Source: a virus
Lineage: Duplodnaviria > Caudoviricetes
Length of the DNA: 50,291 nucleotides
Direction: 5' to 3' (one strand)
IMG/VR virus record: IMGVR_UViG_3300003877_000002
Location: 1 to 50,291 of that record
In this document: one piece after another, positions 12,817 through 45,861 of the stretch
Layout of the letters: each line of letters begins with the position of its first letter
Position numbering within the stretch: position 1 is the first letter of the stretch
The notes under the pieces: model-generated
The model's input: only the letters and a program-made list of their open reading frames with translations
Told to the model about the DNA's origin: nothing
Databases searched by the model: none
Made by a program: the position numbers and the translations under genes

Positions 12817-13173
12817 TCACCATTCTCCGTCTTCGATTACTTCATATTTATTATATTCTGCTGGATAGTTTAAGTAGTACATCCAAACATCTGCTTCCTT
12901 ATTTCCAAGTTGTATAGTAAATTTCTCTCTGTTGTAGAATGTTGGGAAGCCCTCAAGCATATCCAACCTGTCCAATTTCTCTACTTTATAGACCTCTCCT
13001 TTAATCGTAGAAGTAGGTATATCCTTTAAGACACCGGGGAAGCCACCTAAACTAACCATAGTATATTTATTGCTAGTATAAGCATTACTTATGAACTTAG
13101 AATCTACACCTAAAACAGAGTGATTAGAATAGTCCTTCTTTAAAGATCCATAAACAAACACTAGTTCACACAT
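12817..13173 (-). CDS. gamma-glutamylcyclotransferase (AIG2-like)
   Basis: VFVYGSLK, GEVY, LDMLEG. Confidence 0.92.
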   Translation of the reverse strand: MCELVFVYGSLKKDYSNHSVLGVDSKFISNAYTSNKYTMVSLGGFPGVLKDIPTSTIKGEVYKVEKLDRLDMLEGFPTFYNREKFTIQLGNKEADVWMYYLNYPAEYNKYEVIEDGEW

Positions 13174-14817: not shown

Positions 14818-14832
14818 TATTTTTACTTCTCC

Positions 14833-16152: not shown

Positions 16153-16224
16153 TTTCTCATCTCCTAGACTAATAAATTAGTCTGTTAGTTTACCCATTTC
16201 CAATGGGTGTGGGTTACAGTACTA

Positions 16225-17815: not shown

Positions 17816-17859
17816 TAGAAGATAGCCTCTTCTGGTACGGTTTGTGGTGCAGTAACCAT

Positions 17860-18705: not shown

Positions 18706-18739
18706 ATCTCCTTAATGTCAAGATTGTGGTATAGATATT

Positions 18740-19366: not shown

Positions 19367-19578
19367 CTTTCTCCTAGTCCGTATCTTTCTATATCTCTTC
19401 TGCCTACTTCTCCATTCCAACAAGCTAAACAACAGGGTAATAGAGGAGCTTTTATATCTTCTTGTGATACGTACCAAAACCCAATATCATCAGCAAAATC
19501 ATTAACGTTCCCACAGTGTCCACAAATTATTCCGTCTGGATCATCTATTTTTGCTAATTCTAAATCTTTATCAAACAT
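19363..19578 (-). CDS. small Zn-finger-like protein
   Basis: CGHC...CLAC; likely start MFDKDL. Confidence 0.55.
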   Translation of the reverse strand: MFDKDLELAKIDDPDGIICGHCGNVNDFADDIGFWYVSQEDIKAPLLPCCLACWNGEVGRRDIERYGLGER

Positions 19579-20325: not shown

Positions 20326-20622
20326 CTACCCTACTTGAGGTAGATTATTAAGCACTTGTTTAATGGCATCCTTGTGGTAGGACTTTTCATCCAACTTCTT
20401 TTTGAAGCGTCCATTTATTTCCCACAAAATACCAGCACTAATCTTATTAAAGACCTTATCAGCCTGTGCCTTGTTAGGTGTCATTTCTACAGTAGTATCG
20501 CAGCTTGTTATTTCGTAGATCTTTTGCTTACGTTTACGTGCAAAGCTAATGAGTTTAGCATCGCTACCAATACTACGAGCTAGGGTATCGAGTAGGGGTG
20601 TACTTTTCTTAAGTTCTTTCAT
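20326..20622 (-). CDS. hypothetical early protein
   Basis: GGAG RBS, 98 aa. Confidence 0.7.
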   Translation of the reverse strand: MKELKKSTPLLDTLARSIGSDAKLISFARKRKQKIYEITSCDTTVEMTPNKAQADKVFNKISAGILWEINGRFKKKLDEKSYHKDAIKQVLNNLPQVG

Positions 20623-20762
20623 ATAGTTGTCTCCAATTTAATTATCTCCGGGTGAGTTAAATAATATTCAGTATCTTTTTCTTGGCACTGGCTTAGGTTT
20701 GCACCTCCTCCACAGGCTTGCAGAGCCAGCGCACTTGTTGATAGTAATATTGTTACGGGCAT
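20619..20762 (-). CDS. possible small lipoprotein-like protein
   Basis: MPVTILLSTSALALQAC resembles a lipobox; start uncertain. Confidence 0.3.
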   Translation of the reverse strand: MPVTILLSTSALALQACGGGANLSQCQEKDTEYYLTHPEIIKLETTI

Positions 20763-20805
20763 AGCTATGACCAGTTGTAACCTGAAGGGTTGACTAATCA
20801 ACTGA

Positions 20806-21099
20806 CTAGCCCTCTCCATCATACAATTTAGAATAATCTTTATCAATAAGCCAGAGATAACATCCATCATTATCTGGATTATGTGGTTTTAACTTAGTAT
20901 ATTGCTCTACTGTAATATTAGAATGACTGGTAATAATAAACTTAGAATTATATTTTATAATATCATCTGTTTCAAGATTTCTCAACATAAAAGACGTTAG
21001 GGGTTCTGATATAACTAAATTATATTTGATTGTCTTACACATATATGGAGTGTATTCACAACAAACCATTTTATATTGTTTATTCATTGTCATCACCAT
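20806..21099 (-). CDS. hypothetical early protein
   Basis: 97-aa ORF. Confidence 0.6.
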   Translation of the reverse strand: MVMTMNKQYKMVCCEYTPYMCKTIKYNLVISEPLTSFMLRNLETDDIIKYNSKFIITSHSNITVEQYTKLKPHNPDNDGCYLWLIDKDYSKLYDGEG

Positions 21100-21184
21100 C
21101 GTCTACCAATGCAGCGATAATAAAAATAACTAAGACTATTAAAGCGAAGATAACCATAATAAATGGCTCTACATAAATCATCAT
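21080..21184 (-). CDS. 34-aa single-TM peptide (not in ORF track)
   Basis: MMIYVEPFIMVIFALIVLVIFIIAALVDDGDDNE; GGAG RBS. Confidence 0.65.
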   Translation of the reverse strand: MMIYVEPFIMVIFALIVLVIFIIAALVDDGDDNE

Positions 21185-21209
21185 AGTTTAGTCTCCCGCG
21201 CTTCACGCG

Positions 21210-21422
21210 CTATCCTTTGTTTACTTGTTTTACAGGAGTACACTCAAAGAAGTGATTTTTATTTAGCTCCCTAAATTTATCTGTCCTCATTTTAATCTTA
21301 GTTACAAGGTTCATACCTGCGCTGTAGCAGCTTTCATAGTCCTGAAAGCCGGGTACAATATAGAGTGTATCTACATTTGCAGTATGGAATAGTGTTATGA
21401 ATAGGATGAAAGAATAGCTCAC
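21210..21422 (-). CDS. small exported or membrane protein
   Basis: Hydrophobic N-terminus, two Cys. Confidence 0.6.
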   Translation of the reverse strand: MSYSFILFITLFHTANVDTLYIVPGFQDYESCYSAGMNLVTKIKMRTDKFRELNKNHFFECTPVKQVNKG

Positions 21423-21423
21423 T

Positions 21424-21741
21424 TTATTCAGCTTGTGGTTTCATAAAGAAGGGCATATTATCACAGGTAGAACAACAGGATACTGGTTGCATACATTTTG
21501 TACACTTATCTTCAGACATCCTATCTTCTGTGCGTCTAGCCCTTGATGCCATTTCTTTCTTTTTTACCCTGTTGAAGGCTGTTGATAGTAATTCAGCGTC
21601 TAGCTGCTTACGTCGCGGTGAATACCGCTCTAGTAGATTGTCGTTTACTTGTTTCTCCCTTACTTCATCCCAAATAAGGAACATACCAATAATTTCAATT
21701 GAAAGGCAGATTGTTACTACTGAGTATAAGAATGTTAGCAT
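21424..21741 (-). CDS. membrane-anchored early protein with Cys-rich tail
   Basis: N-terminal TM, CTKC..CCSTC; GGAG RBS before the ATG at 21741. Confidence 0.65.
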   Translation of the reverse strand: MLTFLYSVVTICLSIEIIGMFLIWDEVREKQVNDNLLERYSPRRKQLDAELLSTAFNRVKKKEMASRARRTEDRMSEDKCTKCMQPVSCCSTCDNMPFFMKPQAE

Positions 21742-21800
21742 GTTGTTGTATCTCCGGTTGATTAGTTGATTAGTCAATTGATTAGAGTATTAGAATATAC

Positions 21801-22115
21801 TTATATTAAGTTAGCCAGTGAACCCAGCCTTACATCTTTCTTTATAATTTCTTTCTTTCCTCTTTCATAAATAGAGTTTATGTAACGAGTATGTAAGCCC
21901 ATAGCCCTTTCAAGATCGATATTTGCTTGATCTAGTAGTAGTTTAGCAAAGTCTGGATCAGCTAGGGCTTGCTTGATTAGTTTCTGTTCGAGTATTTTCT
22001 CCCGCGCCGCTAGTTTTTGTTGTGCCCTGAAGGGGCTACAGTTGTTCTTTGGTCTATCCAGTGGGCTAACAGATAGGCCATACTTATCAGGCTTAATATA
22101 TGTTTTGTCCAGCAT
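21801..22115 (-). CDS. hypothetical early protein
   Basis: GAGG RBS, 104 aa. Confidence 0.7.
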   Translation of the reverse strand: MLDKTYIKPDKYGLSVSPLDRPKNNCSPFRAQQKLAAREKILEQKLIKQALADPDFAKLLLDQANIDLERAMGLHTRYINSIYERGKKEIIKKDVRLGSLANLI

Positions 22116-22213
22116 TTTAGTTTTACCTCACGCTAATTTTTGTTGATAGTACCCGTGAAGCGGGTACCCTTTGTTCGTGAATTATATTCACTCACTGCAT
22201 AAACTACAGACAT

Positions 22214-22244
22214 AAAAAAAGACAGATAGCTTGCGCTATCCGCC
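22214..22244 (-). terminator. intrinsic terminator
   Basis: GGCGGATAGC-GCAA-GCTATCTGTC followed by T7 on the minus strand. Confidence 0.85.
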
Positions 22245-22295
22245 TAAAGGTTGCCCTGCCAAGTGGGGCAGGGACTTGGGAAGTCATTGGTAATA

Positions 22296-23186
22296 CTACG
22301 CGGCTGCCGCTTCTTTATCTTCTGTCTGGTCTGTCTTATCTTCTGGCTGGTACTTACGTACCTTCTTGATAAGGTTGCCGATTGTCTTCATAGCTTGATC
22401 GACTGTCTTATCATCGGTACAGGTTGATAGTAGTTCAGACAGGCTTGACAGGATAGCTGCATGCTCAGGCATGGATATACCATGCTCAGTAGTATTATCC
22501 CCCTTACCCTCACCATCGCCACCCTCTATATGTGCCCTTTCTTTCTCGGCTTCCAGTTTAGATAGATACAAGGACTGAGTATTCAGTTTAGCTACGCTAT
22601 CCAGTTCACCACGTACAACCTTCTCTTCACCTGTCTCAGGGTGTTTAGTAATGCGCTCATATGTAGCTTGACCAATAAGCTGGGGATTCTCTTTAAAAGC
22701 CTTATTGATACGCGCCTTATATTGTACCCAAGTTTTAGGGGCTGAGCTGTACAGGCCACGTACTTCTTTACTACTGCCCTTAGGTGCTTTGCCCCAGTGC
22801 TTTGATTCTTCCAGTCTGGTACATACTGCATTGAATACCGGGCTAGAGCCGCAAGTAATAGCAAGGGATAGAAAGTGCTTACTGAAATTCATCCTTTCAG
22901 CGTCGAGTTTCATAGCCTTATCATTCTCTGCTACCGCTTCATCCAGTAGCATTTGAGGCGTAATAAGCATGGACTTGCTATTATCTGGATCTTCACGGAA
23001 TGATAGCTGATCGAACTTGATACAGCTTGTTACATCGTTGCCTTCTTCGTCCTGTGTTACTACTTGCAGATCGTTCTGGCCTTCCCCGATACCTTCGTTG
23101 TCTGGGGTAGTCAGAGCTGCATCTGGTACGCTGTCTGAATTGTTGCAACCTGTAGGGTTGATAGTAGTTTGTGTTTGTGTGTTCAT
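22296..23186 (-). CDS. largest early protein, unknown function
   Basis: GGGAG RBS before the ATG at 23186; low-complexity acidic termini. Confidence 0.8.
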   Translation of the reverse strand: MNTQTQTTINPTGCNNSDSVPDAALTTPDNEGIGEGQNDLQVVTQDEEGNDVTSCIKFDQLSFREDPDNSKSMLITPQMLLDEAVAENDKAMKLDAERMNFSKHFLSLAITCGSSPVFNAVCTRLEESKHWGKAPKGSSKEVRGLYSSAPKTWVQYKARINKAFKENPQLIGQATYERITKHPETGEEKVVRGELDSVAKLNTQSLYLSKLEAEKERAHIEGGDGEGKGDNTTEHGISMPEHAAILSSLSELLSTCTDDKTVDQAMKTIGNLIKKVRKYQPEDKTDQTEDKEAAAA

Positions 23187-23294
23187 CTTAATAACTCCCG
23201 CCCCGCTTGGGGCTGATCGGTTGACCAATCAACTCTTCAAGTTGCAAGTGACTGGCTGGTAAATAAAAAAAGTGTAGCTACTACCTATTATAGG

Positions 23295-23516
23295 CTAACT
23301 GGCAGCCTGTACAAGGCTGGTCGATGTAATATCAGGGATAGTCACAGTAACCTGTACTGGTATATAGTTGCTTAGTTCAGTATTACTGTCTGATGGATCA
23401 TGTTTGTTTATTCTATTCACGGCATATTCCATCACTGCTTCTTTAGAATGGAAACAGAACGCACCGATACTATCTGTCTTAGGGTGATAACATACCCAAG
23501 TTGTCTTATTCTTCAT
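23295..23516 (-). CDS. first early gene, hypothetical
   Basis: AAGGA RBS, 73 aa. Confidence 0.65.
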   Translation of the reverse strand: MKNKTTWVCYHPKTDSIGAFCFHSKEAVMEYAVNRINKHDPSDSNTELSNYIPVQVTVTIPDITSTSLVQAAS

Positions 23517-23551
23517 ATCTATATCCTTTTGTATTGATTGAACATGTATAC

Positions 23552-23592
23552 AGCTTAGCAGACTATTACAATAAAAACATGATCTAGATCAA
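23552..23592 (-). promoter_or_regulatory. extended -10 promoter with upstream FNR/ANR-like box
   Basis: TG-C-TAAGCT at 23552-23560; TTGAT-CTAG-ATCAT at 23579-23592, centred near -40.5. Confidence 0.45.
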
Positions 23593-23669
23593 GTACTTGA
23601 TTATCTGATCGATTGACTGATCAAGCGGTCAAAAAGCTGACCTATTACAATGAGCTATATATAAGGTGT

Positions 23670-23698
23670 AGCATACCATATCCCGTACTGTCTGTCAG
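23670..23698 (-). promoter_or_regulatory. sigma70 early promoter
   Basis: CTGACA-N17-TATGCT with extended TG. Confidence 0.75.
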
Positions 23699-23712
23699 TG
23701 TAATACCAGCGA

Positions 23713-23861
23713 TGGCACTGTAATTGAATAGTAAGGGTAAACCCCTATATAGATAGTTATTGCATGACCGGGTGCAGCCAGCACCTAATTAGGCACAAAC
23801 TTTGCACTTGCAATAATGATGCCAAATATCACACCAACTGGTAGCTGGCATAGCCCTTGCA
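23713..23861. promoter_or_regulatory. cluster of sigma54-type -24/-12 boxes
   Basis: Three exact GGCAY-N5-TTGCA boxes (23791 +, 23809-23824 -, 23846 +) and one near match (23713 +). Confidence 0.7.
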
Positions 23862-24032
23862 TGGTAGTGACTACTAACTTGAGAATCTAAATCGAAAGCA
23901 TTCTTATTCAGCCAAAGTCAAGACCCCCCAAGACCAAAGATGAGAACTGGCCAATCGCGATAGGAGCATAAGCTAAACGCAGATACTAAATTTTTCACAT
24001 TTTTATGACTTTGTCATGGCGCTTCACGCCTC

Positions 24033-24052
24033 AGAGAGAGAGAGAGAGAGAG
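24033..24052. repeat. (AG)10 microsatellite
   Basis: Read directly from the sequence. Confidence 0.95.
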
Positions 24053-24232
24053 TTGGTTTAAAATTGCAATCCCACCCTCGGCCCAGAAAATTAATTTTAA
24101 TTCTTCAACAGCGAAGCTCCCTAGAGGGTCGCTGAAAGTAGATAATCTGGGCCTTCGTCCGCTCCCACTGATCATTAGGATAAGAAGTAAAGTAGGGAAA
24201 TTCAGGGATTTAGAAAATATATTGAAAATAAA

Positions 24233-24261
24233 TTGAACTAAATACAAAAAAACTTGTCTAA
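24233..24261 (+). promoter_or_regulatory. ECF (sigmaE/AlgU-like) promoter for late genes
   Basis: TTGAAC-N17-GTCTAA with A-rich upstream tract. Confidence 0.65.
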
Positions 24262-24542
24262 TTTGGTAATTATTTACTTTACTTAGCGATTAAGTGAAAC
24301 TTAGAGCTTTAGTAAACGGAACGAAGAGACAAGTAAAGAGTCTCTTGAACCATTTCAAGAGCGACAAGAATAATGTTTGTAAAGTTAACTTAGTTAAGTT
24401 TACTATTATTCGACTTTACAATTGCTTCTTAGCTTTAAGGCACGAAGCCCTAAAAGCGTAGTGACTGAAAGAAAAGAAGAAAGAAAAGTCTCAGGAAGTT
24501 TATAAACTTCCTTCGACCAAAAGAAAGATAGGAATATAGATC

Positions 24543-25118
24543 TTGCCTAAACAGAGAGTAAATAAGAACTCCCTAGAGGAGTTTGATATTAAAAGTATCT
24601 CTCCTAAAAGAGAGAGTACTATTATGGCAGGTGAAGCTCTGTCTCTTGAGGACAGAGTAACAGCTTGTATGACTTACTTCCTGACAGGGTCTTACACTAA
24701 GACAGCTAAGGCTGTCGGAGCTAGCTACGCTACTATTCTTAAATGGAAGGATATGGAATGGTGGATGCCTACTCTTCTTATCTGTAAGAAGAAGAAGCAA
24801 GAAGAGCTGGATATAGTCCTGACAACTTGTATACATTCTGCCATTGGACAGTTATCTGACAGAATCTCTGAAGGTGATTCTAAGTTAAATAGAGATGGCG
24901 ACCTGATTAAGATACCTATGACAGGTAAGGACTTAGCTTCTAGTATGGCCCTCCTCTTTGATAGGAGAGCCCTGATTAGAGGTGAACCTACCTCTAGAAC
25001 TGAGACTAGTGGAGAACAAGGTAGACTTGACAATCTCCAGAAGCAGTTTGAAGAGATGAGCAAGGCGTTCAACGCAAAGACAATAGAAGGAACAGCAGAA
25101 GTAGTTGAAGTAGAATAA
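24543..25118 (+). CDS. terminase small subunit
   Basis: HTH-like GSYTKTAKAVGASYATILKW, helical body, RGEPTSRTE; first late gene, upstream of TerL. Confidence 0.75.
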   Translation: MPKQRVNKNSLEEFDIKSISPKRESTIMAGEALSLEDRVTACMTYFLTGSYTKTAKAVGASYATILKWKDMEWWMPTLLICKKKKQEELDIVLTTCIHSAIGQLSDRISEGDSKLNRDGDLIKIPMTGKDLASSMALLFDRRALIRGEPTSRTETSGEQGRLDNLQKQFEEMSKAFNAKTIEGTAEVVEVE

Positions 25119-25120
25119 TT

Positions 25121-25196
25121 GCCTCTCGAGCAGAACTGGCCCTGCACCTGTTTTGTAATCAGGAGATACTCAGTTCAAGTCTGAGTAGAGGCTCCA
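25121..25196 (+). tRNA. tRNA-Thr(UGU)
   Basis: 76-nt cloverleaf, loop TT-TGT-AA, TTCAAGT T-loop, encoded CCA; mismatches at 7:66 and 31:39. Confidence 0.85.
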
Positions 25197-25208
25197 AAAC
25201 AATTTCTC

Positions 25209-25273
25209 ATCCTCTGGGAGGAACAGAGTCTCCAAAACTCAGTAGCGGGGTTCGATACCCTGATGGGATGCCA
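25209..25273 (+). tRNA. tRNA-Trp(CCA)-like, D-arm missing
   Basis: GAGT-CTCCAAA-ACTC anticodon arm, CGGGG-TTCGATA-CCCTG T-arm, encoded CCA; only ~9 nt where the D-arm should be. Confidence 0.6.
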
Positions 25274-25283
25274 AATAATTTAT

Positions 25284-25359
25284 CGCTCTTTAGTGTAATT
25301 GATAAGCATAGGGGACTTTGACTCCCCTAGTCTAGGTTTGAGTCCTAGAAGAGCTGCCA
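25284..25359 (+). tRNA. tRNA-Gln(UUG)
   Basis: GGGGA-CTTTGAC-TCCCC anticodon arm, CTAGG/CCTAG T-stem, encoded CCA. Confidence 0.9.
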
Positions 25360-25401
25360 AATAGACTCTCCACGAGAGTTATTTAACCTCGGAAATATAA
25401 T

Positions 25402-25686
25402 ATGCCTAAATTATTAGATAGATGCGTAAAACAACTTATAGCTAATGGCAAGAGTAGATCTGCTGCAACTGCCATATGTACTAAAAGTCTACAAAAGTCT
25501 GGTAATTTGAAAGGAGGCAAGGCCACGGCTAAAGGCAAGAAGAGAGGTAATATGACTCCTGCCGCTAGAGCTAAGGATAGAGCAGCTAAGAAGCGCGGAG
25601 GCAAAGCCTCTAGTTATAAATACAATAAAAAGAATAATACTGCCGTAAAAGGCAAAGTTTCTAAAAGAGTAAAAAAACGTGCCTAA
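25402..25686 (+). CDS. highly basic small protein
   Basis: K/R/A/G-rich, 94 aa. Confidence 0.75.
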   Translation: MPKLLDRCVKQLIANGKSRSAATAICTKSLQKSGNLKGGKATAKGKKRGNMTPAARAKDRAAKKRGGKASSYKYNKKNNTAVKGKVSKRVKKRA

Positions 25687-25966
25687 AGCCAGAAACTATA
25701 AGAAAGAGTATGCCAACTTCCACGGTAAGCCTGCCGAGCGTAAGAAACGCTCTAAGCGCGTGATGGCTCGGCGTAAACTTGAAAAAGAAGGTAAGGTTTC
25801 TAAAGGCGATGGCCGGGATGTTGACCATAAGAAAACCCTTAAATCTGGAGGAAGTAATGCCAGAAGTAATCTAAGAGTTAGGTCTGTAAAAAGTAATCGT
25901 TCTGCTAATGGGCATAAGCCCGGTGAGAAACAAAAGAAATCTACTATAAGGAAAAAGAAAAAATGA
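25679..25966 (+). CDS. small terminase-associated HNH endonuclease
   Basis: DVDHKKTLKSGGSN..SNLRV..KSNRS. Confidence 0.8.
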   Translation: MPKARNYKKEYANFHGKPAERKKRSKRVMARRKLEKEGKVSKGDGRDVDHKKTLKSGGSNARSNLRVRSVKSNRSANGHKPGEKQKKSTIRKKKK

Positions 25967-26139
25967 AAGGTTCCGGTCGAGATAGCGTCCCTGTGGGCGC
26001 GAAAGGTTCTAAAAGAACCAATCCCAAAACTAAAGCAAAGAAGAAAGTTCCTGTAGGAGCAAAAGGTACTAAACGTACCTATGGCAAAGCTACAGAGCGT
26101 AAACGAGTACCTGCTAAAAAAGGTGGTCGAGGCCGCTAG
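25963..26139 (+). CDS. 58-aa highly basic protein (not in ORF track)
   Basis: ATGA overlap; duplicated VPVGAKG(S/T)KRT. Confidence 0.75.
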   Translation: MKGSGRDSVPVGAKGSKRTNPKTKAKKKVPVGAKGTKRTYGKATERKRVPAKKGGRGR

Positions 26140-26164
26140 CCCATGAAGTGGGCTCCCTCAAACC

Positions 26165-27670
26165 ATGCTAAACACGGATACCATTTACGGTTTTGTAACA
26201 ACAATCCTACAGAGTCGTTTTGATTCTCCAAAACCAATCCCTGATTTCCATAAGGAACTGTGGGAACTCTGTACAAGCGAAGAAAAGCAAGTAGCAATAG
26301 CGGCACCAAGGGCGCACGCTAAAAGTACTTCAATCACACATTCCTATGTATTAGCTAAAATGCTCTTCAGAGAGAGTTCCTACTGTTTAATAGTATCTGA
26401 TACTGAAGGACAAGCTATTCAATTCCTTGGTGATATTAAGAAGGAATTAGTAGAGAATGACCTACTTCGTGAAACTTTCGGAATTACCCTCACTAGGGGT
26501 AAACTGACTAAAGATACTGAATCTGTAGCTATTTGTACATTTGAAGATGGACAGCAATTCAGAATTGAAGCTAAAGGTTCCGAACAGAAGGTACGCGGCC
26601 TTAAGTGGAGAAGTCTACGTCCTGACCTAATTATAGGGGATGACCTTGAGAATGATGAGGTTGTACTCAACGAAGAAAGACGCTTTAAGTTCCGCCAGTG
26701 GTTCTTTAATGCTCTCATACCTTGTGGTTCTGATGAATGTCTCATACGTATTGTAGGTACAATCCTACATATGGATTCCATGCTAGAGCGTCTTATGCCA
26801 GCATGGGGAGATAAGGATACACAGACAGATGGACTTAAGTTCTGGACAACACAGAAAAGATCTTGGAAGTCTGTTAGATACCAAGCACATAACTCTGATT
26901 TCTCACAAATGCTTTGGCCTGAGAAGTTCTCAAAAGATAGACTTGAGAGAATTAGAGCTACTTATGTAGAACAAGGTTTCCCTGAAGGCTATTCACAGGA
27001 ATACCTGAATTATCCAATTGATGAAGAGAATGCCTTCTTTCGCAAAGAAGACTTCCCACCGATACAAGATACTGAAGAAAACGTAGAATATTACGTAGGA
27101 GGTGATCTAGCTATCTCGGAGAAGGACAGAAGAGCCTACTCTGTATTTGTAGTTGCAGCCCTTGGTTCAAGTGGCAAACTTAAAGTAGTGGAAGTAGTTA
27201 GACAGAGAATGGACTCTCTAGAGATAATTGAAGAAGTCTTTCGCTTACATGCGAAATTCCATCCAGTTGCCTTCTTTATTGAAAAGGAAAATATTGCTCG
27301 TTCTATTGGCCCTATGTTAAACTTGACTATGCGCCAGAGGAATATATATCCTAATATCGGTGATGATACAATGATTGTACCGTCACAAGATAAGGAGAAG
27401 AGGGCTCAAGCTATTCGAGCTAGGGCTAGGGCTGGTGGAGTAGAGATAAACCATGATGCGTGGTGGTTCGACCTATTCATAACTGAATTAATACAATTTC
27501 CTAGAAGTAAGTATAAAGATCAAGTAGATGCTTTTGCTATGATTGGCTTAGGCCTAGATAAGATGTTAGATACCCCTACTCTACAAGAGTTAGCGGACGA
27601 AGAATACGAAGAAGAAATGGAAGAGGGTTTATTTGGATATGACAACCAAGACTACTTTACTGGCTACTAG
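26165..27670 (+). CDS. terL: terminase large subunit
   Basis: APRAHAKS, IIGDDLE, IVGT, GGDLAIS, DQVDA. Confidence 0.95.
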   Translation: MLNTDTIYGFVTTILQSRFDSPKPIPDFHKELWELCTSEEKQVAIAAPRAHAKSTSITHSYVLAKMLFRESSYCLIVSDTEGQAIQFLGDIKKELVENDLLRETFGITLTRGKLTKDTESVAICTFEDGQQFRIEAKGSEQKVRGLKWRSLRPDLIIGDDLENDEVVLNEERRFKFRQWFFNALIPCGSDECLIRIVGTILHMDSMLERLMPAWGDKDTQTDGLKFWTTQKRSWKSVRYQAHNSDFSQMLWPEKFSKDRLERIRATYVEQGFPEGYSQEYLNYPIDEENAFFRKEDFPPIQDTEENVEYYVGGDLAISEKDRRAYSVFVVAALGSSGKLKVVEVVRQRMDSLEIIEEVFRLHAKFHPVAFFIEKENIARSIGPMLNLTMRQRNIYPNIGDDTMIVPSQDKEKRAQAIRARARAGGVEINHDAWWFDLFITELIQFPRSKYKDQVDAFAMIGLGLDKMLDTPTLQELADEEYEEEMEEGLFGYDNQDYFTGY

Positions 27671-27673
27671 ATT

Positions 27674-29722
27674 ATGAGTACTCCTGAAGAAAGACAAGCT
27701 ACAATTACTTTAGAGACACTTAATCTAGCTGAAGGCTTAGATGAAGATACTTTAAAGGATGTTGGTGAGTATGTAGTTAATATCTATGAAGAGGATCTAG
27801 AATCTAGATCTGAGTGGGAAGAGCGTAATGAACGCTGGCTGAAGTTAGCTACTCAAGTGATGGAATCTAAAGACTATCCTTGGGCAGGAGCTTCTAATGT
27901 TAAGTTCCCCCTGCTGGCTACAGCAGCTCTTAATTTTCAAGCGAGAGCATATCCAGCTTTAATTCCAGACAATAGTATTGTAAAAACTCGTGTATTTGGT
28001 AAAGACCCAACTGGCGAGAAAAGAGAACGTGGTACTCGTGTAAGCAAACACATGAGTTATCAGCTCTTAGAAGAAGATCCAGATTGGCAGGAAGATATGG
28101 ACAGGTTGCTCTATATTCTACCTATTATTGGACTCTGTTATAAAAAGACTTATCATAATGTAGCTTTGGGGCTTAATAAAAACCCTCTTATAGGGCCAGA
28201 TGATTTGGTAATTAACTACCACGCTGAATCCTACGAGAGGGCTATTAAGACCCACCGAATGTACCTAAACTCTAACGAAGTATATGAGAATATAGCAACT
28301 GAATACTTCCTTGATGTAGGTTTAGAAGACCCAACTCCAGATGAATCGGAGCATAAGGGTATAGAGGACGACCTTATTGGTCTAACACCTCCTGTACGAG
28401 ATGAGAGTGCTGCCAACGAAGGTCTAAATGACACTCCTTATGAGTTCTTAGAGCAACATACTTGGTATGATCTCGATGAAGATGGTTATAAAGAGCCTTA
28501 TATCATTACTGTAGAGAAAGACTCTAAGAAAGTAGTGCGTATATCTGCTAGATATGACCTAAAAGGCATAATTAAGGCAGCAGATGGCTCTATTGCCAAG
28601 ATTATTCCTACAGAGTACTTTACACAGTATGGTTTCTTACCTAATCCAGAGTCTAAAATTTATTATCAAGGTTTTGGTGCTTTATTAGGCCCAATTAACG
28701 CTGCCTCTAATACAATCCTTAACTTATTGATCGATGCTGGGCATATAAGTACCTTACAGAGTGGTTTCTTAGGTAAAGGTATTCGTTTAAAGGGTGGTAA
28801 GCTTAGATTTAAGCCCGGTGAGTGGAAAACTATTAATTCTACTGGAGATGATATACGTAAGAATGTATTTGCTCTCCCAGTACGTGAACCTTCCAATGTT
28901 CTATTTAATTTGCTAGGGATGTTGATCGAGTCAGGGGAACGCCTGTCCAGTGTTAAGGATATAATGGCTGGGGAAAATCCCGGTCAGAATCAACCTTATG
29001 CAACTACTGTAGCTGTATTAGAACAAGGTATGAAGGTATTTGTAGGTATATATAAACGTATATATCGTGCTCTACATGCTGAATTTAAGAAGCAGTACCG
29101 CCTTAATTCTATTTACTTTAATGAAGAAAAGTATATTGCTTTCTTAGATGAAGACGAAGCTACTCCTATTGGCCCAGAAGATTATAATATAGAGGATCTA
29201 AATATAGCACCTGCTGCTGATCCTAGCATTGTATCTGAGTCTCATAGGATGATGAAGGCTGAAAGTCTTCTACAGAAGAAGATGGCAGGTCTTCCAATCA
29301 ATACTGCTGAGGTGACTCGTAGAGTACTTGAAGTGGAAGGACATGAAGATATAGAACGTCTACTAGAGCCAGATCCACAACAAGCACCAGATCCAGAACT
29401 AGAACTAAAAGCTACTGAGCTTGAAATGAAGGACGAACAGTTCCAAGTAGAAATGCAATTGAAAGCTATGAATTCACAGTTTGAGGCATTTAAAGATTAT
29501 GCACAAGCTATGAGTAGTATGGCTAAAGCGGCTGCTACTGAGTCCAATATGCAGTCTGAAGAGTTTGTTAAACTTGCACAGACAGCTAATCAAGAGTATC
29601 AGTCTATTACTGCTCGAATGAAAGTTATGCAAGATGGCATGATGAAAGACTTCGAGGATGATGATAAGGCTGCTGATAAAGAAGAAGAAGCGGCTAAGAA
29701 CGCAATGTCCCAAGAGGGTTAA
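27674..29722 (+). CDS. portal protein (podoviral type)
   Basis: 682 aa after TerL; PWAGASNV, helical C-terminal barrel region. Confidence 0.88.
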   Translation: MSTPEERQATITLETLNLAEGLDEDTLKDVGEYVVNIYEEDLESRSEWEERNERWLKLATQVMESKDYPWAGASNVKFPLLATAALNFQARAYPALIPDNSIVKTRVFGKDPTGEKRERGTRVSKHMSYQLLEEDPDWQEDMDRLLYILPIIGLCYKKTYHNVALGLNKNPLIGPDDLVINYHAESYERAIKTHRMYLNSNEVYENIATEYFLDVGLEDPTPDESEHKGIEDDLIGLTPPVRDESAANEGLNDTPYEFLEQHTWYDLDEDGYKEPYIITVEKDSKKVVRISARYDLKGIIKAADGSIAKIIPTEYFTQYGFLPNPESKIYYQGFGALLGPINAASNTILNLLIDAGHISTLQSGFLGKGIRLKGGKLRFKPGEWKTINSTGDDIRKNVFALPVREPSNVLFNLLGMLIESGERLSSVKDIMAGENPGQNQPYATTVAVLEQGMKVFVGIYKRIYRALHAEFKKQYRLNSIYFNEEKYIAFLDEDEATPIGPEDYNIEDLNIAPAADPSIVSESHRMMKAESLLQKKMAGLPINTAEVTRRVLEVEGHEDIERLLEPDPQQAPDPELELKATELEMKDEQFQVEMQLKAMNSQFEAFKDYAQAMSSMAKAAATESNMQSEEFVKLAQTANQEYQSITARMKVMQDGMMKDFEDDDKAADKEEEAAKNAMSQEG

Positions 29723-30034
29723 ATGTCACAAAACTTAGAAGAACTTTTTGACTCTAATTCAATTAGAGCCAGAGCAGAAGCAATCTTAATAGAGATTACA
29801 CCAGAAGAAAGACAGAATTGGTTACAGCATCCAATTACCAAATCACTCTTACTTACACTAAAAGGTGATTATTTAGATCACCACTCAGCGTGGGAAGGTG
29901 GGGCTTTTACCTCTGAAGGTTCAGATGGTACAGCTCAGCAAAATGCCAAGGCTCTTGGCTCCTTAGAAGCAATACGACTATTAGCAAACTATATAGAGGA
30001 TATAAACTCTTATGATCAAAGTGAAGGGATATAG
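29723..30034 (+). CDS. hypothetical protein
   Basis: ORF abutting the portal. Confidence 0.7.
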   Translation: MSQNLEELFDSNSIRARAEAILIEITPEERQNWLQHPITKSLLLTLKGDYLDHHSAWEGGAFTSEGSDGTAQQNAKALGSLEAIRLLANYIEDINSYDQSEGI

Positions 30035-30392
30035 AATCCTAGTTAAACCTGATGAAATAGAAAAAGTAACGGAGTCAGGAATTATAATTTCTCAGAATGA
30101 AGTTATAGAAGAATCAGGTATCCAGCAAGGATACTTAATAGCGGTAGGAGAACAGGCTTGGAAAGCTTTTCGACAACTGGATGAGAACGGTAAAGAAGTA
30201 GAAGGTAAATCTTGGGCAAAACCCGGTGATTATGTTTTATGGGCACGACATGCTGGAAGGAAGGTATTTGATCCACATGAGCCTGATGAAAGTAATTACT
30301 ATATGGTAATGAATGATGAAGACATCATAGCAATCATTACTGAAGGTACTAACCCTGAGTTTAGTCCTAATACAATAACGGAGACATTATAA
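30012..30392 (+). CDS. groES: GroES-like co-chaperonin
   Basis: RILVKP, TESGIII mobile loop, IAVG, KPGDYV, VMNDEDIIA. Confidence 0.88.
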   Translation: MIKVKGYRILVKPDEIEKVTESGIIISQNEVIEESGIQQGYLIAVGEQAWKAFRQLDENGKEVEGKSWAKPGDYVLWARHAGRKVFDPHEPDESNYYMVMNDEDIIAIITEGTNPEFSPNTITETL

Positions 30393-31273
30393 TGTCAGAA
30401 GATAAAAAAGAAATACTTCCAGAAGATGCATTTGTGTTTGAGGAAGAAGTAGAAGAAGGTACTGCTACTGTAGTAGTGGAAGAAGATGAAGTATCACCAA
30501 TGACTCAGAAAGCACTTACTGAGGGCTGGGTTCCTAAAGAGGACTTTAAAGGTGATGAGGATTCGTGGGTAGAAGCTAAGGAATTTGTATTCCGTGGTGA
30601 GCTTATGGATCGAATTAAAAAGCAGAGTGGAGTTATTAATAGCCTATCAGATCAGACTAAAGATCTAAAAGATGCTCTAAAGGTATTAGGTGAACATAAT
30701 AAGAAGCTTGCTAATGTTGAATATAAGAAAGCTATCGCAACTCTTAAGAAGGAGAAGGTGGATGCTCTCGAAGAGCGAGATCATGGAGCGGTACTAGAGA
30801 TTGATGAACAAATTGATGAACTAAAAGAAGCTCAAAAAGATGTAAAAGAGCAGAAGGACGAAGTATCTGAAGAAGTAGCGGAAGCTCCTCCACAAGTAAT
30901 AGCGTGGTTAGAGAGTCCTAAGAATAGCTGGTTTAATACTGATATTATTATGCGTGGTGCTGCTGATGCACTAGCTGGTAAGTACATTCAGGAAAATCCC
31001 GGCGACTTCGATGGAATGCTTAATTATATGGAAAAAGAAATTAGAAAGGAATTTCCTGCTAAATTCGGTATAGAAAAACCAGCAAGTAACGCTGTCGGTA
31101 GTTCGGATGGTAGGGGAAAGGGGCGAGTAGCCTCAAAAGAACGGGGTAAGAAACATAGCCCTCGTGACTTAGATGAAGAGCAATATGCTGTTGGAAAGAC
31201 CTTTGTTAATCAAGGTGTCTATAAGAACATGCAAGAATGGGTTGATGAACTCGCTAAGACAGATCAACTTTAA
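30392..31273 (+). CDS. scaffolding protein
   Basis: Acidic coiled-coil protein between portal and capsid. Confidence 0.7.
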   Translation: MSEDKKEILPEDAFVFEEEVEEGTATVVVEEDEVSPMTQKALTEGWVPKEDFKGDEDSWVEAKEFVFRGELMDRIKKQSGVINSLSDQTKDLKDALKVLGEHNKKLANVEYKKAIATLKKEKVDALEERDHGAVLEIDEQIDELKEAQKDVKEQKDEVSEEVAEAPPQVIAWLESPKNSWFNTDIIMRGAADALAGKYIQENPGDFDGMLNYMEKEIRKEFPAKFGIEKPASNAVGSSDGRGKGRVASKERGKKHSPRDLDEEQYAVGKTFVNQGVYKNMQEWVDELAKTDQL

Positions 31274-31299
31274 ACTCGATAGAGAAAGGAAAAAATATA

Positions 31300-31782
31300 A
31301 TGGCTAAAGTAGAACGTACTTCTAGAGGACAACGTACAGAGCGTCCAAATGCAAATGCGGATTCTCGCGCAGAACGACCAAGTGAACGAGTACCAGTAAA
31401 CGGTATGCGGGATAAACTTACCGTACACGGTAAAGACCCTAGCTTCCATTACTATTGGTGCAAAGATAACAATGAAGAAGGACAAGAAATTTTTAACTTT
31501 TTACGTGCTGGTTATGTATTTGTACGAGCAGATGAAGTAAAGATTGGACAAGATGCTGTCTATAAGACAGAGAGTGTTGGTTCAATTATACGGCAACCTG
31601 CTGGATTTGGTGAATGGCTCTATCTTATGAAGCAACCTATGGACTTCTATTTAGAAGATCAGAAGGCCGAACAAGATCGAATCTTATCTAGAGAAAATGC
31701 AATGATCAAGAAACGTAGTCCAGAAGAAATACGTGAAGATGAGCAATACAATTCGAGTACTTTATCTAGCGATTTACGCTAG
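31300..31782 (+). CDS. hypothetical head-module protein
   Basis: AAGGA RBS, position in the head module. Confidence 0.65.
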   Translation: MAKVERTSRGQRTERPNANADSRAERPSERVPVNGMRDKLTVHGKDPSFHYYWCKDNNEEGQEIFNFLRAGYVFVRADEVKIGQDAVYKTESVGSIIRQPAGFGEWLYLMKQPMDFYLEDQKAEQDRILSRENAMIKKRSPEEIREDEQYNSSTLSSDLR

Positions 31783-31903
31783 AATTTTAACTACAACTTT
31801 TGTGCCCATTAGATCGTTTAAATTAATCGGTTACTTTGTAACCTTAAAAAAACAAGCTGCTTATGCAGCGACATAATTAACTTAAATTTAGGAGAAAATA
31901 ATT

Positions 31904-32536
31904 ATGGCTAATGTTGATCGTCCTATTGGCGCACGAGTTGTAGGAACCCTTAGTGGTTCTCCTTGGGAAGCTTCCTTAGAAGCCTTTACACTTGATGGCG
32001 GCCATGCGGCAATTGGAGTTGGTGATCTAGTACAGATGACATCTGATGGTTATTTGGATGTATATGCTGCTGGGGAAACTGGCTTTATTGGAGTTTGTGT
32101 AGGTATTTTACCTGTGAGTTTGGGAGTAGTTAATGGCAAGAAGAATAACTTCATGTCTAGTACTGAACCTACCTTGACTGGCTCTGGTGTTAATACCAGT
32201 ATAGCTAATGCTACAGATACTATTTTGGTATGTACTGCACCTGATGCTATTATAGAAATGCAGGAAGATGGAGTTGGTACACCGCTGACTCTAGTTATGG
32301 TGGGTAGTAATGTTGATATTATCAATGTTGCTGGAGTACATGGTACTACTGGTAAGTCTCAGATGGAAATTGATTCTAGTACTAGTGCTGCTACTAATAC
32401 TTTCCCGCTGCGGTTGCTTGGTCTTGTACAAGATCCAGACAACGAGCTGGCTTCTGTAGATGCTACTAAACCGTGGGCACGCTGGTTATGCACACCTGCT
32501 AACCATTTCTATAGCGGCTTGAATGTCGGTCTATAA
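31904..32536 (+). CDS. capsid decoration / minor head protein
   Basis: Beta-rich G/T/A composition, immediately before the major capsid gene. Confidence 0.55.
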   Translation: MANVDRPIGARVVGTLSGSPWEASLEAFTLDGGHAAIGVGDLVQMTSDGYLDVYAAGETGFIGVCVGILPVSLGVVNGKKNNFMSSTEPTLTGSGVNTSIANATDTILVCTAPDAIIEMQEDGVGTPLTLVMVGSNVDIINVAGVHGTTGKSQMEIDSSTSAATNTFPLRLLGLVQDPDNELASVDATKPWARWLCTPANHFYSGLNVGL

Positions 32537-32559
32537 TTCTTAAAGGAGAATAAAACAAA

Positions 32560-33471
32560 ATGGGTATTATTACTACTGGCAGTTTTGCCAAATTGCTGTA
32601 CCCCGGTCTGAATAAGATCTATGGAACAGCTTATAACGAATGGCCTACTCAGTATACCGACTTGTTCGATACGTATACCGATAGTCGTGCGTACCTTGAA
32701 GATATGGCAGTGACAGGATTGGGACAGGCTCAGCTTAAAACTGAAGGCTCCCCAGTCAAATACGATGATATGTCTCAGTCTTTCTACACGCGCTATACGC
32801 ACGCTGTATGGGCTCTGGGTTTCATTATCACTCGTGAAATGTACGAAGATGATCAGTATGGCCACATGGGTTCCAAGAAATCTAATGCATTAGCTTTTTC
32901 TATGCGTCAGACTAAGGAAGTCAATATGGCTAATATTTACAATCGAGCTTTTAATAGTTCTTACACTGGCGGTGATGGTGTGGAACTTGCGAGTTCGGCA
33001 CATGTAAATTACACTGGTGGTAATTGGTCTAATATCTCCTCGACTGCGGCAGCTTTATCTGAAGCGGCTCTGGAACAGGCAGTTATTGACATTTCCAAGT
33101 GGACGGATGATCGTGGTTTACAGATTCAGGTTCTTGCTAAAACTCTGGTGATCCCAACAGATCTTCAGTTTGAAGCAGAGCGTATCTTGTATACTACTAG
33201 TCGTGTAGGTACTAATGATAATGATATAAATGCTCTGAAGGTTATGAGTAAGATTCCGGGTGGATATAAAACTAATCAATACTTGACTAGTTCTACTCGT
33301 TGGTTCTTACGCACTAACTGTCCAGATAGCATGAAGTATATCAGTCGGCGTAAAGTTGAATTTACCATTGATAATGAGTTCGACACCGAGAATGCTAAGT
33401 TTAAATCTACTGAGCGTTATTCTGGTGGTTGGTCTGATGCTCGTGGTATCTACGCATCTAACGCTGCTTAA
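32560..33471 (+). CDS. major capsid protein (Mu gpT-like, HK97 fold)
   Basis: LLYPGLN, KTEG, ALGFIITREMYEDD, ERYSGGWSD; strong RBS and downstream terminator. Confidence 0.9.
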   Translation: MGIITTGSFAKLLYPGLNKIYGTAYNEWPTQYTDLFDTYTDSRAYLEDMAVTGLGQAQLKTEGSPVKYDDMSQSFYTRYTHAVWALGFIITREMYEDDQYGHMGSKKSNALAFSMRQTKEVNMANIYNRAFNSSYTGGDGVELASSAHVNYTGGNWSNISSTAAALSEAALEQAVIDISKWTDDRGLQIQVLAKTLVIPTDLQFEAERILYTTSRVGTNDNDINALKVMSKIPGGYKTNQYLTSSTRWFLRTNCPDSMKYISRRKVEFTIDNEFDTENAKFKSTERYSGGWSDARGIYASNAA

Positions 33472-33479
33472 CATAACTT

Positions 33480-33508
33480 GAGTAGGGAGAATATCCCTAC
33501 TCTTTTTT
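33480..33508 (+). terminator. intrinsic terminator after the major capsid gene
   Basis: GAGTAGGGA-GAATA-TCCCTACTC-T6. Confidence 0.88.
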
Positions 33509-33522
33509 AGGAGAATATCCAA

Positions 33523-33957
33523 ATGGCTAATAAAAATTCTACAACTCAGGCTAACATTCGTTCTGGCCCGAAGTCCACTGCTGGCGCAAGTGGGCATACT
33601 GGTAGCGTGGTTCTTGCTCTACCTATTTCCTTTGACCCCGCTGCTGCTGCTGCTGATACTGGAATTAATCTTCCAGCCAGTTGTATAGTAGTTGGTTTTG
33701 CACATGATGGTGGAGGTACTGGAGGTACTAATCCTACTTTAATCGTAGGTACTTCTGCTGATACTAATGGATACATTACCGCTGCTGCGGCTGATGCTGC
33801 TGGTTTGGCAGGTATTGATGGAGCTTTAGCTAATACTGCAACAACTGCCGCTACTGCTATTTATGCAGGGGTAGGAACTAGTGCTGCTACTGGTGGTACT
33901 GTTACTGGTAATATACTTTATAAGTTCGTAGATTCTGCTTCTGGACTTAATGAGTAA
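33523..33957 (+). CDS. Ala/Gly/Thr-rich virion protein
   Basis: Composition and position. Confidence 0.6.
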   Translation: MANKNSTTQANIRSGPKSTAGASGHTGSVVLALPISFDPAAAAADTGINLPASCIVVGFAHDGGGTGGTNPTLIVGTSADTNGYITAAAADAAGLAGIDGALANTATTAATAIYAGVGTSAATGGTVTGNILYKFVDSASGLNE

Positions 33958-33964
33958 GTAACTT

Positions 33965-34192
33965 ATGGGCAAAACTAGAAATCCCGGCTGGAAGAGTGGA
34001 CAACATTGGGTACATTGTGATGTATGTGGATTCATATACAGACAAACCAAAATGCGTCTTCGCTGGGATAATCTAGTTGTTTGTCCAAAAGATTTTGAAA
34101 GGCGACAACCCCAAGACTTTGTAAAAGGAAGAAAAGAGGATGTTGCTGCTAAGGGTTTAGTAAGAACTGAACCTGAAGACACGTTCATTTAG
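33965..34192 (+). CDS. small Cys-containing protein
   Basis: CDVCG...VCPKDFE. Confidence 0.7.
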   Translation: MGKTRNPGWKSGQHWVHCDVCGFIYRQTKMRLRWDNLVVCPKDFERRQPQDFVKGRKEDVAAKGLVRTEPEDTFI

Positions 34193-34276
34193 GTGTGAAG
34201 CACCGAACGAACTACTTTATATAAACTAATAGGTTGTCGTAGAAGGAACTACCGATTAACTTTTAATCTAACCTTA

Positions 34277-45860: not shown

Positions 45861-45861
45861 T

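Follow-up and report, generated by a model that had tools for sequence, protein, structure and literature searches.

A family of TGAAG-loop hairpins concentrated in the non-coding DNA of an uncultured phage genome

The window analysed here is the complete virus record IMGVR_UViG_3300003877_000002, 50,291 bases of 38% G+C from a tailed phage (Caudoviricetes), and its subject is a family of short hairpins with a fixed TGAAG loop. The genes are arranged in two divergent arms. Those of the left arm run leftward from ~23.5 kb to 0 and continue to 46.7 kb, those of the right arm run rightward from 24.5 to 46.5 kb, and the two are separated by a 1.1-kb non-coding region (23,517-24,623) in which the GC skew switches sign, a putative origin of replication. 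The terminal 97 nt of the record are identical (1-97 and 50195-50291), so the assembly closes on itself and the start and end of the record are arbitrary; we read the repeat as an overlap left by assembling a circular or permuted genome and not as evidence of physical terminal repeats.

A hairpin was defined as a perfect inverted repeat with a stem of at least 4 bp and a 5-nt spacer, and the whole genome was scanned. All seven TGAAG/CTTCA hairpins of the initial annotation were recovered with the positions and sequences reported there, together with an eighth that had been overlooked (Table 1; members are named by their first position). Seven members lie in non-coding DNA, and the eighth, 22024, is intragenic. 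Hairpin 20779 sits in the 43-nt gap between ORF 20806-21099 and a 47-aa lipoprotein-like ORF (20619-20762) and overlaps copy O1 of a 22-nt palindromic motif, and 21197 constitutes the entire gap from the TAG stop of ORF 21210-21422 to the GGGAG Shine-Dalgarno sequence of a 35-aa hydrophobic ORF (start 21184). Hairpin 22149 lies 13 nt downstream of a perfect TATAAT (minus strand, 22188-22183) and 53 nt past a terminator (22245-22220), and its opening 3 nt double as the final 3 nt of a copy of the 10-mer GTTGATAGTA (22142-22151). Hairpin 23230 has its AGTTG arm in common with palindromic motif copy O3 (23213-23234), and the loop centre of 26138 lies 19 nt ahead of the terL start (26165), which has no Shine-Dalgarno sequence. 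The 3′ arm of the loop variant 23146 overlaps a further GTTGATAGTA copy (23157-23166).

Compared with other pentaloops and with shuffled sequence, TGAAG/CTTCA tops all loop classes. It accounts for eight of the 343 perfect pentaloop hairpins in the genome, with a runner-up class of five, and 1000 dinucleotide-preserving shuffles gave a mean of 0.59 and a maximum of 4 such hairpins; some loop class reached eight copies in 1 of the 1000. The hairpin rate of the genome is itself raised (343 versus 252 ± 16 in shuffles), and a conservative Poisson test at the genome's own rate gives eight observed where 1.35 are expected (p = 8e-5; ~0.04 once all 512 loop classes are allowed for). As a natural background, 128 unrelated viral loci (1.15 Mb) contained 16 TGAAG/CTTCA hairpins, at most one per locus; this set comprised 50 + 78 loci matched by a 16-nt palindrome and a doubled 10-mer, matches that were read, by judgement, as chance. 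Placement provides the strongest test. Non-coding DNA makes up 3544 nt, or 7% of the genome, by our gene calls and holds 35 of the 343 pentaloop hairpins; seven of these 35 carry the TGAAG/CTTCA loop, and every other class has at most two. The pentamer occurs 198 times genome-wide, and at least four Watson-Crick pairs flank 7 of its 10 non-coding copies, the remaining three being stemless, versus 1 of 188 coding copies. With a stem rate of 0.0068 for the 198 pentamers (1.35 in all), ~1.3 chance hairpins are expected in coding DNA; the GTTG-T flank of 22024 nevertheless argues for its membership. G-C pairs make up 28 of the 38 stem pairs over the eight members. Shuffles, natural background, non-coding placement and G+C-rich stems together indicate that the family is real and under selection, which supports the proposal of a structure combined with an invariant loop. 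A second pentaloop class, GGCTA/TAGCC, was also over-represented (5 hairpins versus 0.55 expected; 15325, 17817, 26983, 32923 and 37740); its stems are A+T-rich and the loop centre is non-coding in 17817 only.

Table 1. TGAAG-loop hairpins, linked motifs and gene content of the window
Feature	Position	Strand	Details
AACC-TGAAG-GGTT	20779-20791	+	mRNA of leftward genes reads CUUCA; GTTG-T 5′ of stem
CGCG-TGAAG-CGCG	21197-21209	-	mRNA sense UGAAG; + strand reads CGCG-CTTCA-CGCG
GCCC-TGAAG-GGGC	22024-22036	+	Eighth member, inside ORF 21801-22115; mRNA sense CUUCA; GTTG-T 5′ of stem
GTACCCG-TGAAG-CGGGTAC	22149-22167	+	Longest stem; mRNA sense CUUCA
CAACT-TGAAG-AGTTG	23230-23244	-	mRNA sense UGAAG; + strand reads CAACT-CTTCA-AGTTG
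GGCG-TGAAG-CGCC	24018-24030	-	In the 1.1-kb divergent non-coding region, adjoining a (GA)9 run; sole member without T(A/T)G tag
AGCCCA-TGAAG-TGGGCT	26138-26154	+	mRNA sense UGAAG; stem opens with the AG of the TAG that ends ORF 25963-26139
GGTG-TGAAG-CACC	34192-34204	+	mRNA sense UGAAG; first base is the G of the TAG stop of a 75-aa Cys-rich ORF (33965-34192)
Loop variant CAACC-TGTAG-GGTTG	23146-23160	+	GTTG directly 5′ of stem; within the first codons of ORF 22296-23186
Loop variant GGCT-TGCAG-AGCC	20715-20727	+	Inside the lipoprotein-like ORF; 9 nt before GTTGATAGTA copy 20737
GTTGATAGTA, exact copies (n = 9)	14546, 18241, 19703, 20737, 21581, 22142, 22423, 23157, 46193 (each + 9 nt)	+	
TTGAYYRRTCAAYCNWTCAG, 22-nt palindrome-containing motif (- strand reading)	O1 20782-20803; O2 ~21757-21778; O3 23213-23234 (-); O4 23605-23626		Upstream of early genes
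DnaG-like primase	ORF 10160-10975		
DnaB-like helicase	ORF 7517-8722		
Left-arm content			Small early ORFs; amidoligase/glutamine-amidotransferase/ATP-grasp cluster; RtcB; DnaG-like primase; DnaB-like helicase; family-A DNA polymerase; exonuclease; methyltransferase; HNH endonuclease; ribonucleotide reductase
Right-arm content			TerS-like ORF; two tRNAs; three very basic small proteins; TerL; portal; major capsid protein; tail and connector proteins; 1070-aa ORF last

The stems, previously described as unrelated, do vary and pair perfectly, but they are not all independent. CG-TGAAG-CG is common to 21197, 22149 and 24018, the 11-mer GCGTGAAGCGC is common to 21197 and 24018, and an RGTTG half-site found repeatedly in this region makes up the stems of two members (20779 and 23230) and of variant 23146. 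Allowing G-T pairs added no non-coding member and yielded three extra matches, all coding and unconvincing. Isolated hairpins are of modest stability, with folding energies that run from -1.2 to -11.3 kcal/mol for RNA and from -1.9 to -7.6 kcal/mol for DNA. Flanks read by eye show no clear T-run on either strand of any of the eight members, and therefore we do not regard them as intrinsic terminators; a loose terminator scan (5 T in 8 bases) returned only 22149 among them (plus strand, tail CCTTTGTTCG), and the clear terminators of this genome have other loops, such as GCAA and GAATA.

Beyond loop and stem, a short tag accompanies the TGAAG strand. T(A/T)G, with its end allowed to fall anywhere from 3 nt ahead of the stem's 5′ edge to 2 nt within it, is found on that strand in 7/8 members and on the opposite strand in 2/8, compared with 22% of 686 strand-specific background hairpins (binomial p = 1.7e-4, for a pattern set post hoc). 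The tags read ATAG, CTAG, TTAG, CTTG and, three times, GTTG, the last being the tag of plus-strand early-arm members; among the 15 TGNAG hairpins, four have a GTTG whose end lies 0-3 nt 5′ of the stem, the background rate being 0.0099 per position. Three or four plus-strand members adjoin a second strand-specific motif, either GTTG or GTTGATAGTA. The latter is strictly one-stranded: all 17 matches with at most one mismatch lie on the plus strand; shuffles predict 6.2 matches, and 0 of 100 reached 17. Six exact copies cluster within 19.7-23.2 kb. A same-strand TGNAG hairpin lies within 12 nt of 3/9 exact copies, an association reached in 1/20,000 permutations genome-wide and 3/20,000 within 14-24.1 kb. 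Its reading frame differs from gene to gene, which argues against a protein motif; candidate roles for GTTGATAGTA are a polar signal in DNA, whether Chi-like, stoperator-like or serving replication or packaging, and an RNA motif, UACUAUCAAC. It was rejected as a sigma-70 promoter on either strand, as on our reading no matching -10 or -35 partner stands at the right spacing.

Loop orientation is indifferent to transcription, as had been claimed: the TGAAG strand is mRNA-sense at four sites and antisense at three, with 24018, in the divergent region, in neither group. This arrangement bears directly on the possibility that the hairpins act in RNA, as intercistronic or 5′-untranslated-region stem-loops that would affect mRNA stability, processing, translational coupling or antitermination. 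All members but one occupy non-coding gaps inside transcription units. At three UGAAG sites the hairpin starts within 0-2 nt of the TAG that closes the preceding gene. At two, 19 nt separate the loop centre from the following start codon, and one of these two abuts a Shine-Dalgarno sequence. The CUUCA sites 22149 and 20779 fall within the first ~30 nt after -10-like hexamers (consensus matches only). In local mRNA-sense folds of the gaps holding seven members, six hairpins are predicted to form. This reading has the best precedent, the (X)n-loop-(Y)n hairpins of phage T4, and it suits the four sense-strand sites well. However, a loop-specific RNA reader or a stable loop needs one sense, whereas four mRNAs carry UGAAG and three carry CUUCA, and the tag and GTTG follow the TGAAG strand even where it is antisense (three or four members). 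A consensus scan of 20-24 kb found no plus-strand promoter match of at least 10/12. A survey of natural RNA pentaloops (PMC9074901) mentions neither UGAAG nor CUUCA in its main text, RNA hairpins with 4-bp stems have little stability (-1.2 to -6.2 kcal/mol), and G·U-containing members are absent from non-coding DNA. Action at the RNA level is the main rival reading, only slightly less likely than the one favored below.

Several narrower candidates were rejected. A start codon within the loop (NTG-AAG) and small upstream ORFs are positioned inconsistently among the sites; UGAAG-CUUCA loop kissing is possible on paper and without support; and restriction or recognition sites containing TGAAG, such as CTGAAG, have inconsistent flanks. 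Stop-codon recoding at the TAG-ending upstream genes was likewise set aside, since the second tRNA is Thr(UGU) and no suppressor, and the ORFs are intact under code 11.

The early region carries further palindromic signals. The 22-nt motif TTGAYYRRTCAAYCNWTCAG occurs in four copies, three of which begin 15-18 nt past a -10-like hexamer, and hairpin 22149 holds the equivalent position after its perfect TATAAT; TTGAYYRRTCAAYCNWTCAG is probably an operator or a 5′-leader hairpin of early transcripts. A comparable arrangement is found in the nearest cultured relative, Alcaligenes phage vB_Af_QDWS535, whose TerL is 43% identical and which has the two-arm layout and an amidoligase cluster in common with the window. 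Its early-arm non-coding gaps (44008-48104) contain seven palindromes fitting TCCTA-N4-TAGGA, five as TCCTA-AYAT-TAGGA, one as ATCCTA-ACAT-TAGGAT and one as TTCCTA-ACGT-TAGGAA, and this repeat looks like the counterpart of TTGAYYRRTCAAYCNWTCAG in another sequence. Operator-like palindromes are therefore seemingly typical of the phage group, and the TGAAG hairpins, with their varied stems, are distinct from them.

These signals nonetheless suggest a reading in which the hairpins form a mixed set with no single reader, made up of by-products of double-stranded regulator sites (RGTTGA half-sites, the 22-nt palindrome and GTTGATAGTA) and ordinary intercistronic hairpins, the shared pentamer being partly coincidence and partly local duplication. 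The RGTTG half-sites in the stems of 20779, 23146 and 23230 speak for such an origin, as do the alignment of the 20779 loop with the NWTCAG tail of the 22-nt motif, the 90% identity between the 20-nt surroundings of 20779 and 23146 (20774-20793 versus 23142-23161), and the presence of GCGTGAAGCGC at both 21197 and 24018. About one coding member is expected by chance, the family-wise significance on raw counts is just ~0.04, and the seven-copy early palindrome of QDWS535 demonstrates that operator-like repeats occur in the group. What the mixture leaves unexplained is why 7/10 non-coding pentamers stand in hairpins, why five stems (CGCG, GTACCCG, GGCG, AGCCCA and GGTG) are G+C-rich without GTTG, and why two members lie in the late arm, 2-10 kb away. 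We consider it quite unlikely as a full account.

We tentatively favor a different interpretation, which we rate as plausible though short of probable: the hairpins would be tag-stem-loop landmarks on single-stranded DNA (ssDNA) of the TGAAG-bearing strand, used by the replication apparatus near the GC-skew switch. The signal would take the form 5′-T(A/T)G, 0-3 nt, a Watson-Crick stem of 4-7 bp of any sequence, a T-GAA-G loop and the complementary arm, and would be read on single-stranded nucleic acid of whichever strand bears TGAAG. Because that strand is mRNA-like at four sites and template at three or four, DNA exposed as a single strand is a likelier substrate than mRNA. The mixed loop orientation, the tag that follows the TGAAG strand and the strictly Watson-Crick stems, with no G-T members, all favor this reading, and we infer from them that ssDNA is the substrate. 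The earlier suggestion of an ssDNA signal is retained on that footing. Its alternative, cruciform DNA, is not, as extrusion of 4-bp arms from duplex is judged physically unlikely for hairpins with the DNA energies given above.

How such a signal might be used, whether in priming or in replication, is speculative, and so is what reads it. A sequence- and structure-specific phage replication protein would use the hairpins as landmarks on strands coated with single-stranded-DNA-binding protein (SSB), to start or organize DNA synthesis. Plus-strand early-arm members with GTTG or GTTGATAGTA would act beside the putative origin for leftward synthesis, while members on the other strand and the two late-arm members would stand on the would-be lagging-strand template. 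The genome encodes a DnaG-like primase, a DnaB-like helicase, a family-A polymerase and an SSB-like protein; the last (ORF 4399-4968, 189 aa) has, by eye, an OB-like N-terminus and an acidic C-terminal tail and looks like a phage SSB, and a weak Pfam match to RepSA (E = 0.008) is probably spurious. A passage in PMC13037366 places GAA/GAAA mini-hairpins, which it describes as poor substrates for SSB binding, in the G4 complementary-strand origin, RSF1010 ssiA and N4 promoters. Six members lie within 3.25 kb of the divergent region and the GC-skew switch; the probable genome end invoked in the initial annotation is not demonstrated, the record closing on itself by the 97-nt overlap and the distant TerL matches including Mu-type phages. 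Seen more broadly, the family may represent a new class of hairpin-dependent initiation signal in a phage that lacks an N4-like polymerase, defined by tag and loop and not by the sequence of the stem, present on either strand and read by replication or unrecognized transcription machinery, which we put forward as unlikely though worth considering.

Several observations weigh against a replication signal on ssDNA. No partner protein was identified for the hairpins. The leading/lagging argument fits either orientation in the left arm and so tests little, and the positions of four members are just those that intercistronic RNA hairpins should occupy. The tag pattern was set up with the data already in view, and 3/7 of its instances are the TAG stop codon of the upstream gene; TAG ends all six upstream genes, versus 20/69 genes overall. 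The 4-bp stems are marginal as ssDNA at the energies above, and the loop is closed by T·G, without the C-G pair that gives GNA mini-hairpins their exceptional stability (described in a passage of PMC13037366).

Comparison with relatives adds further points on the same side. TerL searches of viral and metagenome contigs yielded 15 related loci (31-67% identity), from which the TGAAG family is absent, no pentaloop class exceeding three copies; one TGAAG hairpin was present among the six of these loci checked for it. At the orthologous junction upstream of terL, a TGAAG/CTTCA hairpin was found in 0/12 loci, representing 10 distinct sequences (L009 = L011 and L007 = L013 there), and none was seen downstream of the homologue of the Cys-rich ORF in seven loci of sufficient length. 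QDWS535 has two TGAAG/CTTCA hairpins, both coding, and MW202796 has none. As the family is absent from every relative examined, covariation gives no evidence either way. Conservation of the loop among relatives, which the initial annotation had treated as decisive, thus formally fails, but these relatives are a weak test, being too distant and too divergent in their early regions. The TerL-related loci are syntenic with the window in the late arm, and the early genes are not conserved in them. The 296-aa early protein had no relatives in viral contigs, a 26-nt stretch spanning motif and hairpin had no exact match, and DNA similarity to GenBank phages covers at most 3% of the query. The family is known from one uncultured metagenomic genome. 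Its probable source is a hydrothermal-vent metagenome, the sole sequencing run with the genome sequence, present there as contigs; no RNA run was among the matches listed.

A transcriptional role for ssDNA hairpins has a precedent in phage N4, to which the family had been likened, and N4-type promoters would here be read by an unrecognized hairpin-specific RNA polymerase. Passages of PMC4496689 and PMC13037366 describe the N4 promoter as a template-strand hairpin whose stem is 5-7 bp long and whose 3-nt loop, GGA or GAA, is centred at -11; three such promoters lie in the first 10% of the genome. If T·G is counted, stems of 5-8 pairs with a GAA triloop reproduce this geometry; counting 11 nt in the 5′ direction from the loop centre along the template strand, the +1 position would be the G of GTTG at 20779, 22024 and 23146; these three and 22149 lie on the template strand of early genes; and such a start would give the Shine-Dalgarno-less lipoprotein gene a 12-nt leader. 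Even so, the model fails. The T7-like polymerase family PF00940 was unmatched in six frames, a weak result as control genomes were likewise unmatched, and no RNA polymerase family appeared in PHROGs, Pfam or NCBIfam scans of the larger and early ORFs. A single ORF, of 1070 aa, has a suitable size. Neither Pfam nor PDB gave it a match; the named Atlas clusters closest to it, polyvalent-protein domains (LPD38, LPD3), are no more than a lead, and a model from ten homologues is all-helical at low confidence (pLDDT 48.7). Four members on the coding strand (21197, 23230, 26138 and 34192) would drive antisense RNA, the template strand being used in only 3-4/8, and the early genes have ordinary -10-like hexamers. 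In place of the C-G closing pair and the conservation from -17 to +1 there is T·G, and stems are not conserved, the shared flank being just T(A/T)G or GTTG. N4-type promoters are therefore a very improbable explanation.

A similarly small chance attaches to repetitive extragenic palindrome (REP)-like elements, in which a host Y1 (RAYT-type) HUH enzyme or some different host factor would act on tagged palindromes. GTAG- and CGTC-tagged REPs are extragenic, occur in both orientations and have an unpaired tetranucleotide tag at one end, as a passage in PMC3733652 describes, and the window hairpins resemble them in being extragenic, in both orientations, often just downstream of coding regions, with an unpaired tetranucleotide-like end tag. 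But that tag is T(A/T)G or GTTG, neither GTAG nor CGTC, and copies of a REP family share their entire 20-40 nt, whereas here the loop alone is shared. The Y1 transposase family PF01797 was unmatched in six frames of the phage, in a search whose control matched 10/14 genomes.

Several neighboring features deserve mention in their own right. The 47-aa ORF 20619-20762 has a lipoprotein-type signal sequence (LALQAC) and no Shine-Dalgarno sequence, and a TGAAG-family hairpin stands at most 25 nt before both Shine-Dalgarno-less genes, this ORF and terL (26165). Beside hairpin 24018, the (GA)9 run is followed within 24031-24153 by nested inverted repeats (GGCCCAGA...TCTGGGCC, inner CAGCGA...TCGCTG) with no Rfam match; these may form a structured RNA or belong to an origin or pac region. 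Rfam matches in the genome are limited to two tRNAs. The second (25121-25193; 40.3 bits), missed by ARAGORN, has a UGU anticodon loop (Thr) and a U-U mismatch at the base of the anticodon stem, and 25236-25269 resembles the T-arm of a third tRNA with a score well under threshold. Between the tRNAs and terL (25402-26139) lie three successive small ORFs (94, 95 and 58 aa) that are extremely rich in lysine and arginine, the middle one being kept in relatives at up to 64% identity. In the left arm, the cluster at 13166-19477, which the window and QDWS535 have in common, encodes an ATP-grasp (RimK-like) protein, a class-II glutamine amidotransferase, an amidoligase, a COOH-NH2 ligase and a second amidotransferase, and is adjoined by RtcB (11580-12815) and a radical-SAM-like ORF (8731-9717); it may serve peptide or base modification.

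Phage T4 provides one of the closest known counterparts of the TGAAG family. T4 and other phages contain (X)nCUUCGG(Y)n hairpins, mostly intergenic, with stems of 2-8 bp (Tuerk 1988, as cited in a passage of PMC8948821), and their functions are varied, including 5′ stabilization of gene 32 mRNA (PMC8948821, PMC4371310). Both families combine an invariant apex with unrelated Watson-Crick stems in mostly intergenic positions of one phage genome. They differ in that the T4 apex is an extra-stable UUCG tetraloop, closed by C-G and present in RNA in the mRNA sense, whereas the window has a TGAAG pentamer in both senses with a 5′ T(A/T)G tag, a loop of ordinary nearest-neighbor energies and no known special stability. 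The initial annotation knew of no description of the element. That stands for the TGAAG loop, as no UGAAG hairpin family in phages was described among the full-text literature matches listed, in which the word occurred only for Xrn1-resistant motifs of RNA viruses; it does not stand for fixed-loop intergenic phage hairpins as such, in print since T4 CUUCGG according to the same passage of PMC8948821. The TGAAG hairpins are a new loop in a known kind of phage element, so far private to this genome.

Lambda boxB offers a second RNA comparison, in which early transcripts fold a short, G+C-rich stem capped by a purine-rich pentaloop. Its loop, GAAGA or GAAAA, adopts a GNRA-tetraloop-like fold that needs the terminal A, and it acts in the mRNA sense with boxA nearby. 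The window loop, UGAAG, lacks the G...A frame, and three sites are antisense. At one of them, 22024, the sequence GCCCTGAAG is identical to the first nine bases of lambda nutL boxB; that site is both antisense and intragenic. No boxA-like flank was seen by eye at the members, and no N-like family appeared in the PHROGs and Pfam scans.

Among signals read on ssDNA, N4 promoters resemble the window hairpins in being small and G+C-rich with a G-purine-A triloop (GAA in the window if T·G is counted) within the first early-region kilobases, in having stem positions that may vary and need only pair, and in having both structure and sequence read. N4, however, has three promoters of almost the same sequence, with conservation from -17 to +1 and C-G closure, each located on the template strand and served by a 3500-aa virion polymerase, whereas in the window no polymerase gene was found, stems differ, closure is by T·G and half the sites are on the wrong strand. 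Extrusion of the N4 hairpins in vivo depends on supercoiling and SSB. The G4 origin and RSF1010 ssiA/ssiB likewise have GAA(A)-type ssDNA hairpins, and the RSF1010 initiation signals are on both strands near the origin; they mark primase starts, and the window phage has its own primase. Those signals are at least 40 nt long, with defined sequences and one or two per replicon, unlike the eight minimal hairpins of the window, two of them far from the putative origin. REP/GTAG repeats share with the window hairpins an extragenic location, both orientations, frequent placement after stops and an unpaired tag by a palindrome, which in REPs is recognized as folded ssDNA; they are chromosomal and conserve their entire sequence and a GTAG/CGTC tag, whereas the window hairpins have in common just their loop and a less strict tag, with no Y1 enzyme found in the phage.

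Fixed-loop, free-stem hairpins also include iron-responsive elements and integron attC sites. A fixed loop on free stems is the signature of a reader that recognizes a shape plus a few bases, and the known cases have each opened up a mechanism. To these the TGAAG family adds a new loop that is strand-tagged, indifferent to transcription direction and tied to the strictly one-stranded 10-mer GTTGATAGTA, with a weight limited by its origin in one hydrothermal-vent metagenomic genome that has no close relative. If the hairpins are read in RNA, phages besides T4 would evolve private 'house' loops. If they are read on ssDNA, hairpin-directed initiation would extend beyond N4-like phages and small ssDNA replicons to an ordinary double-stranded DNA podovirus-like genome.

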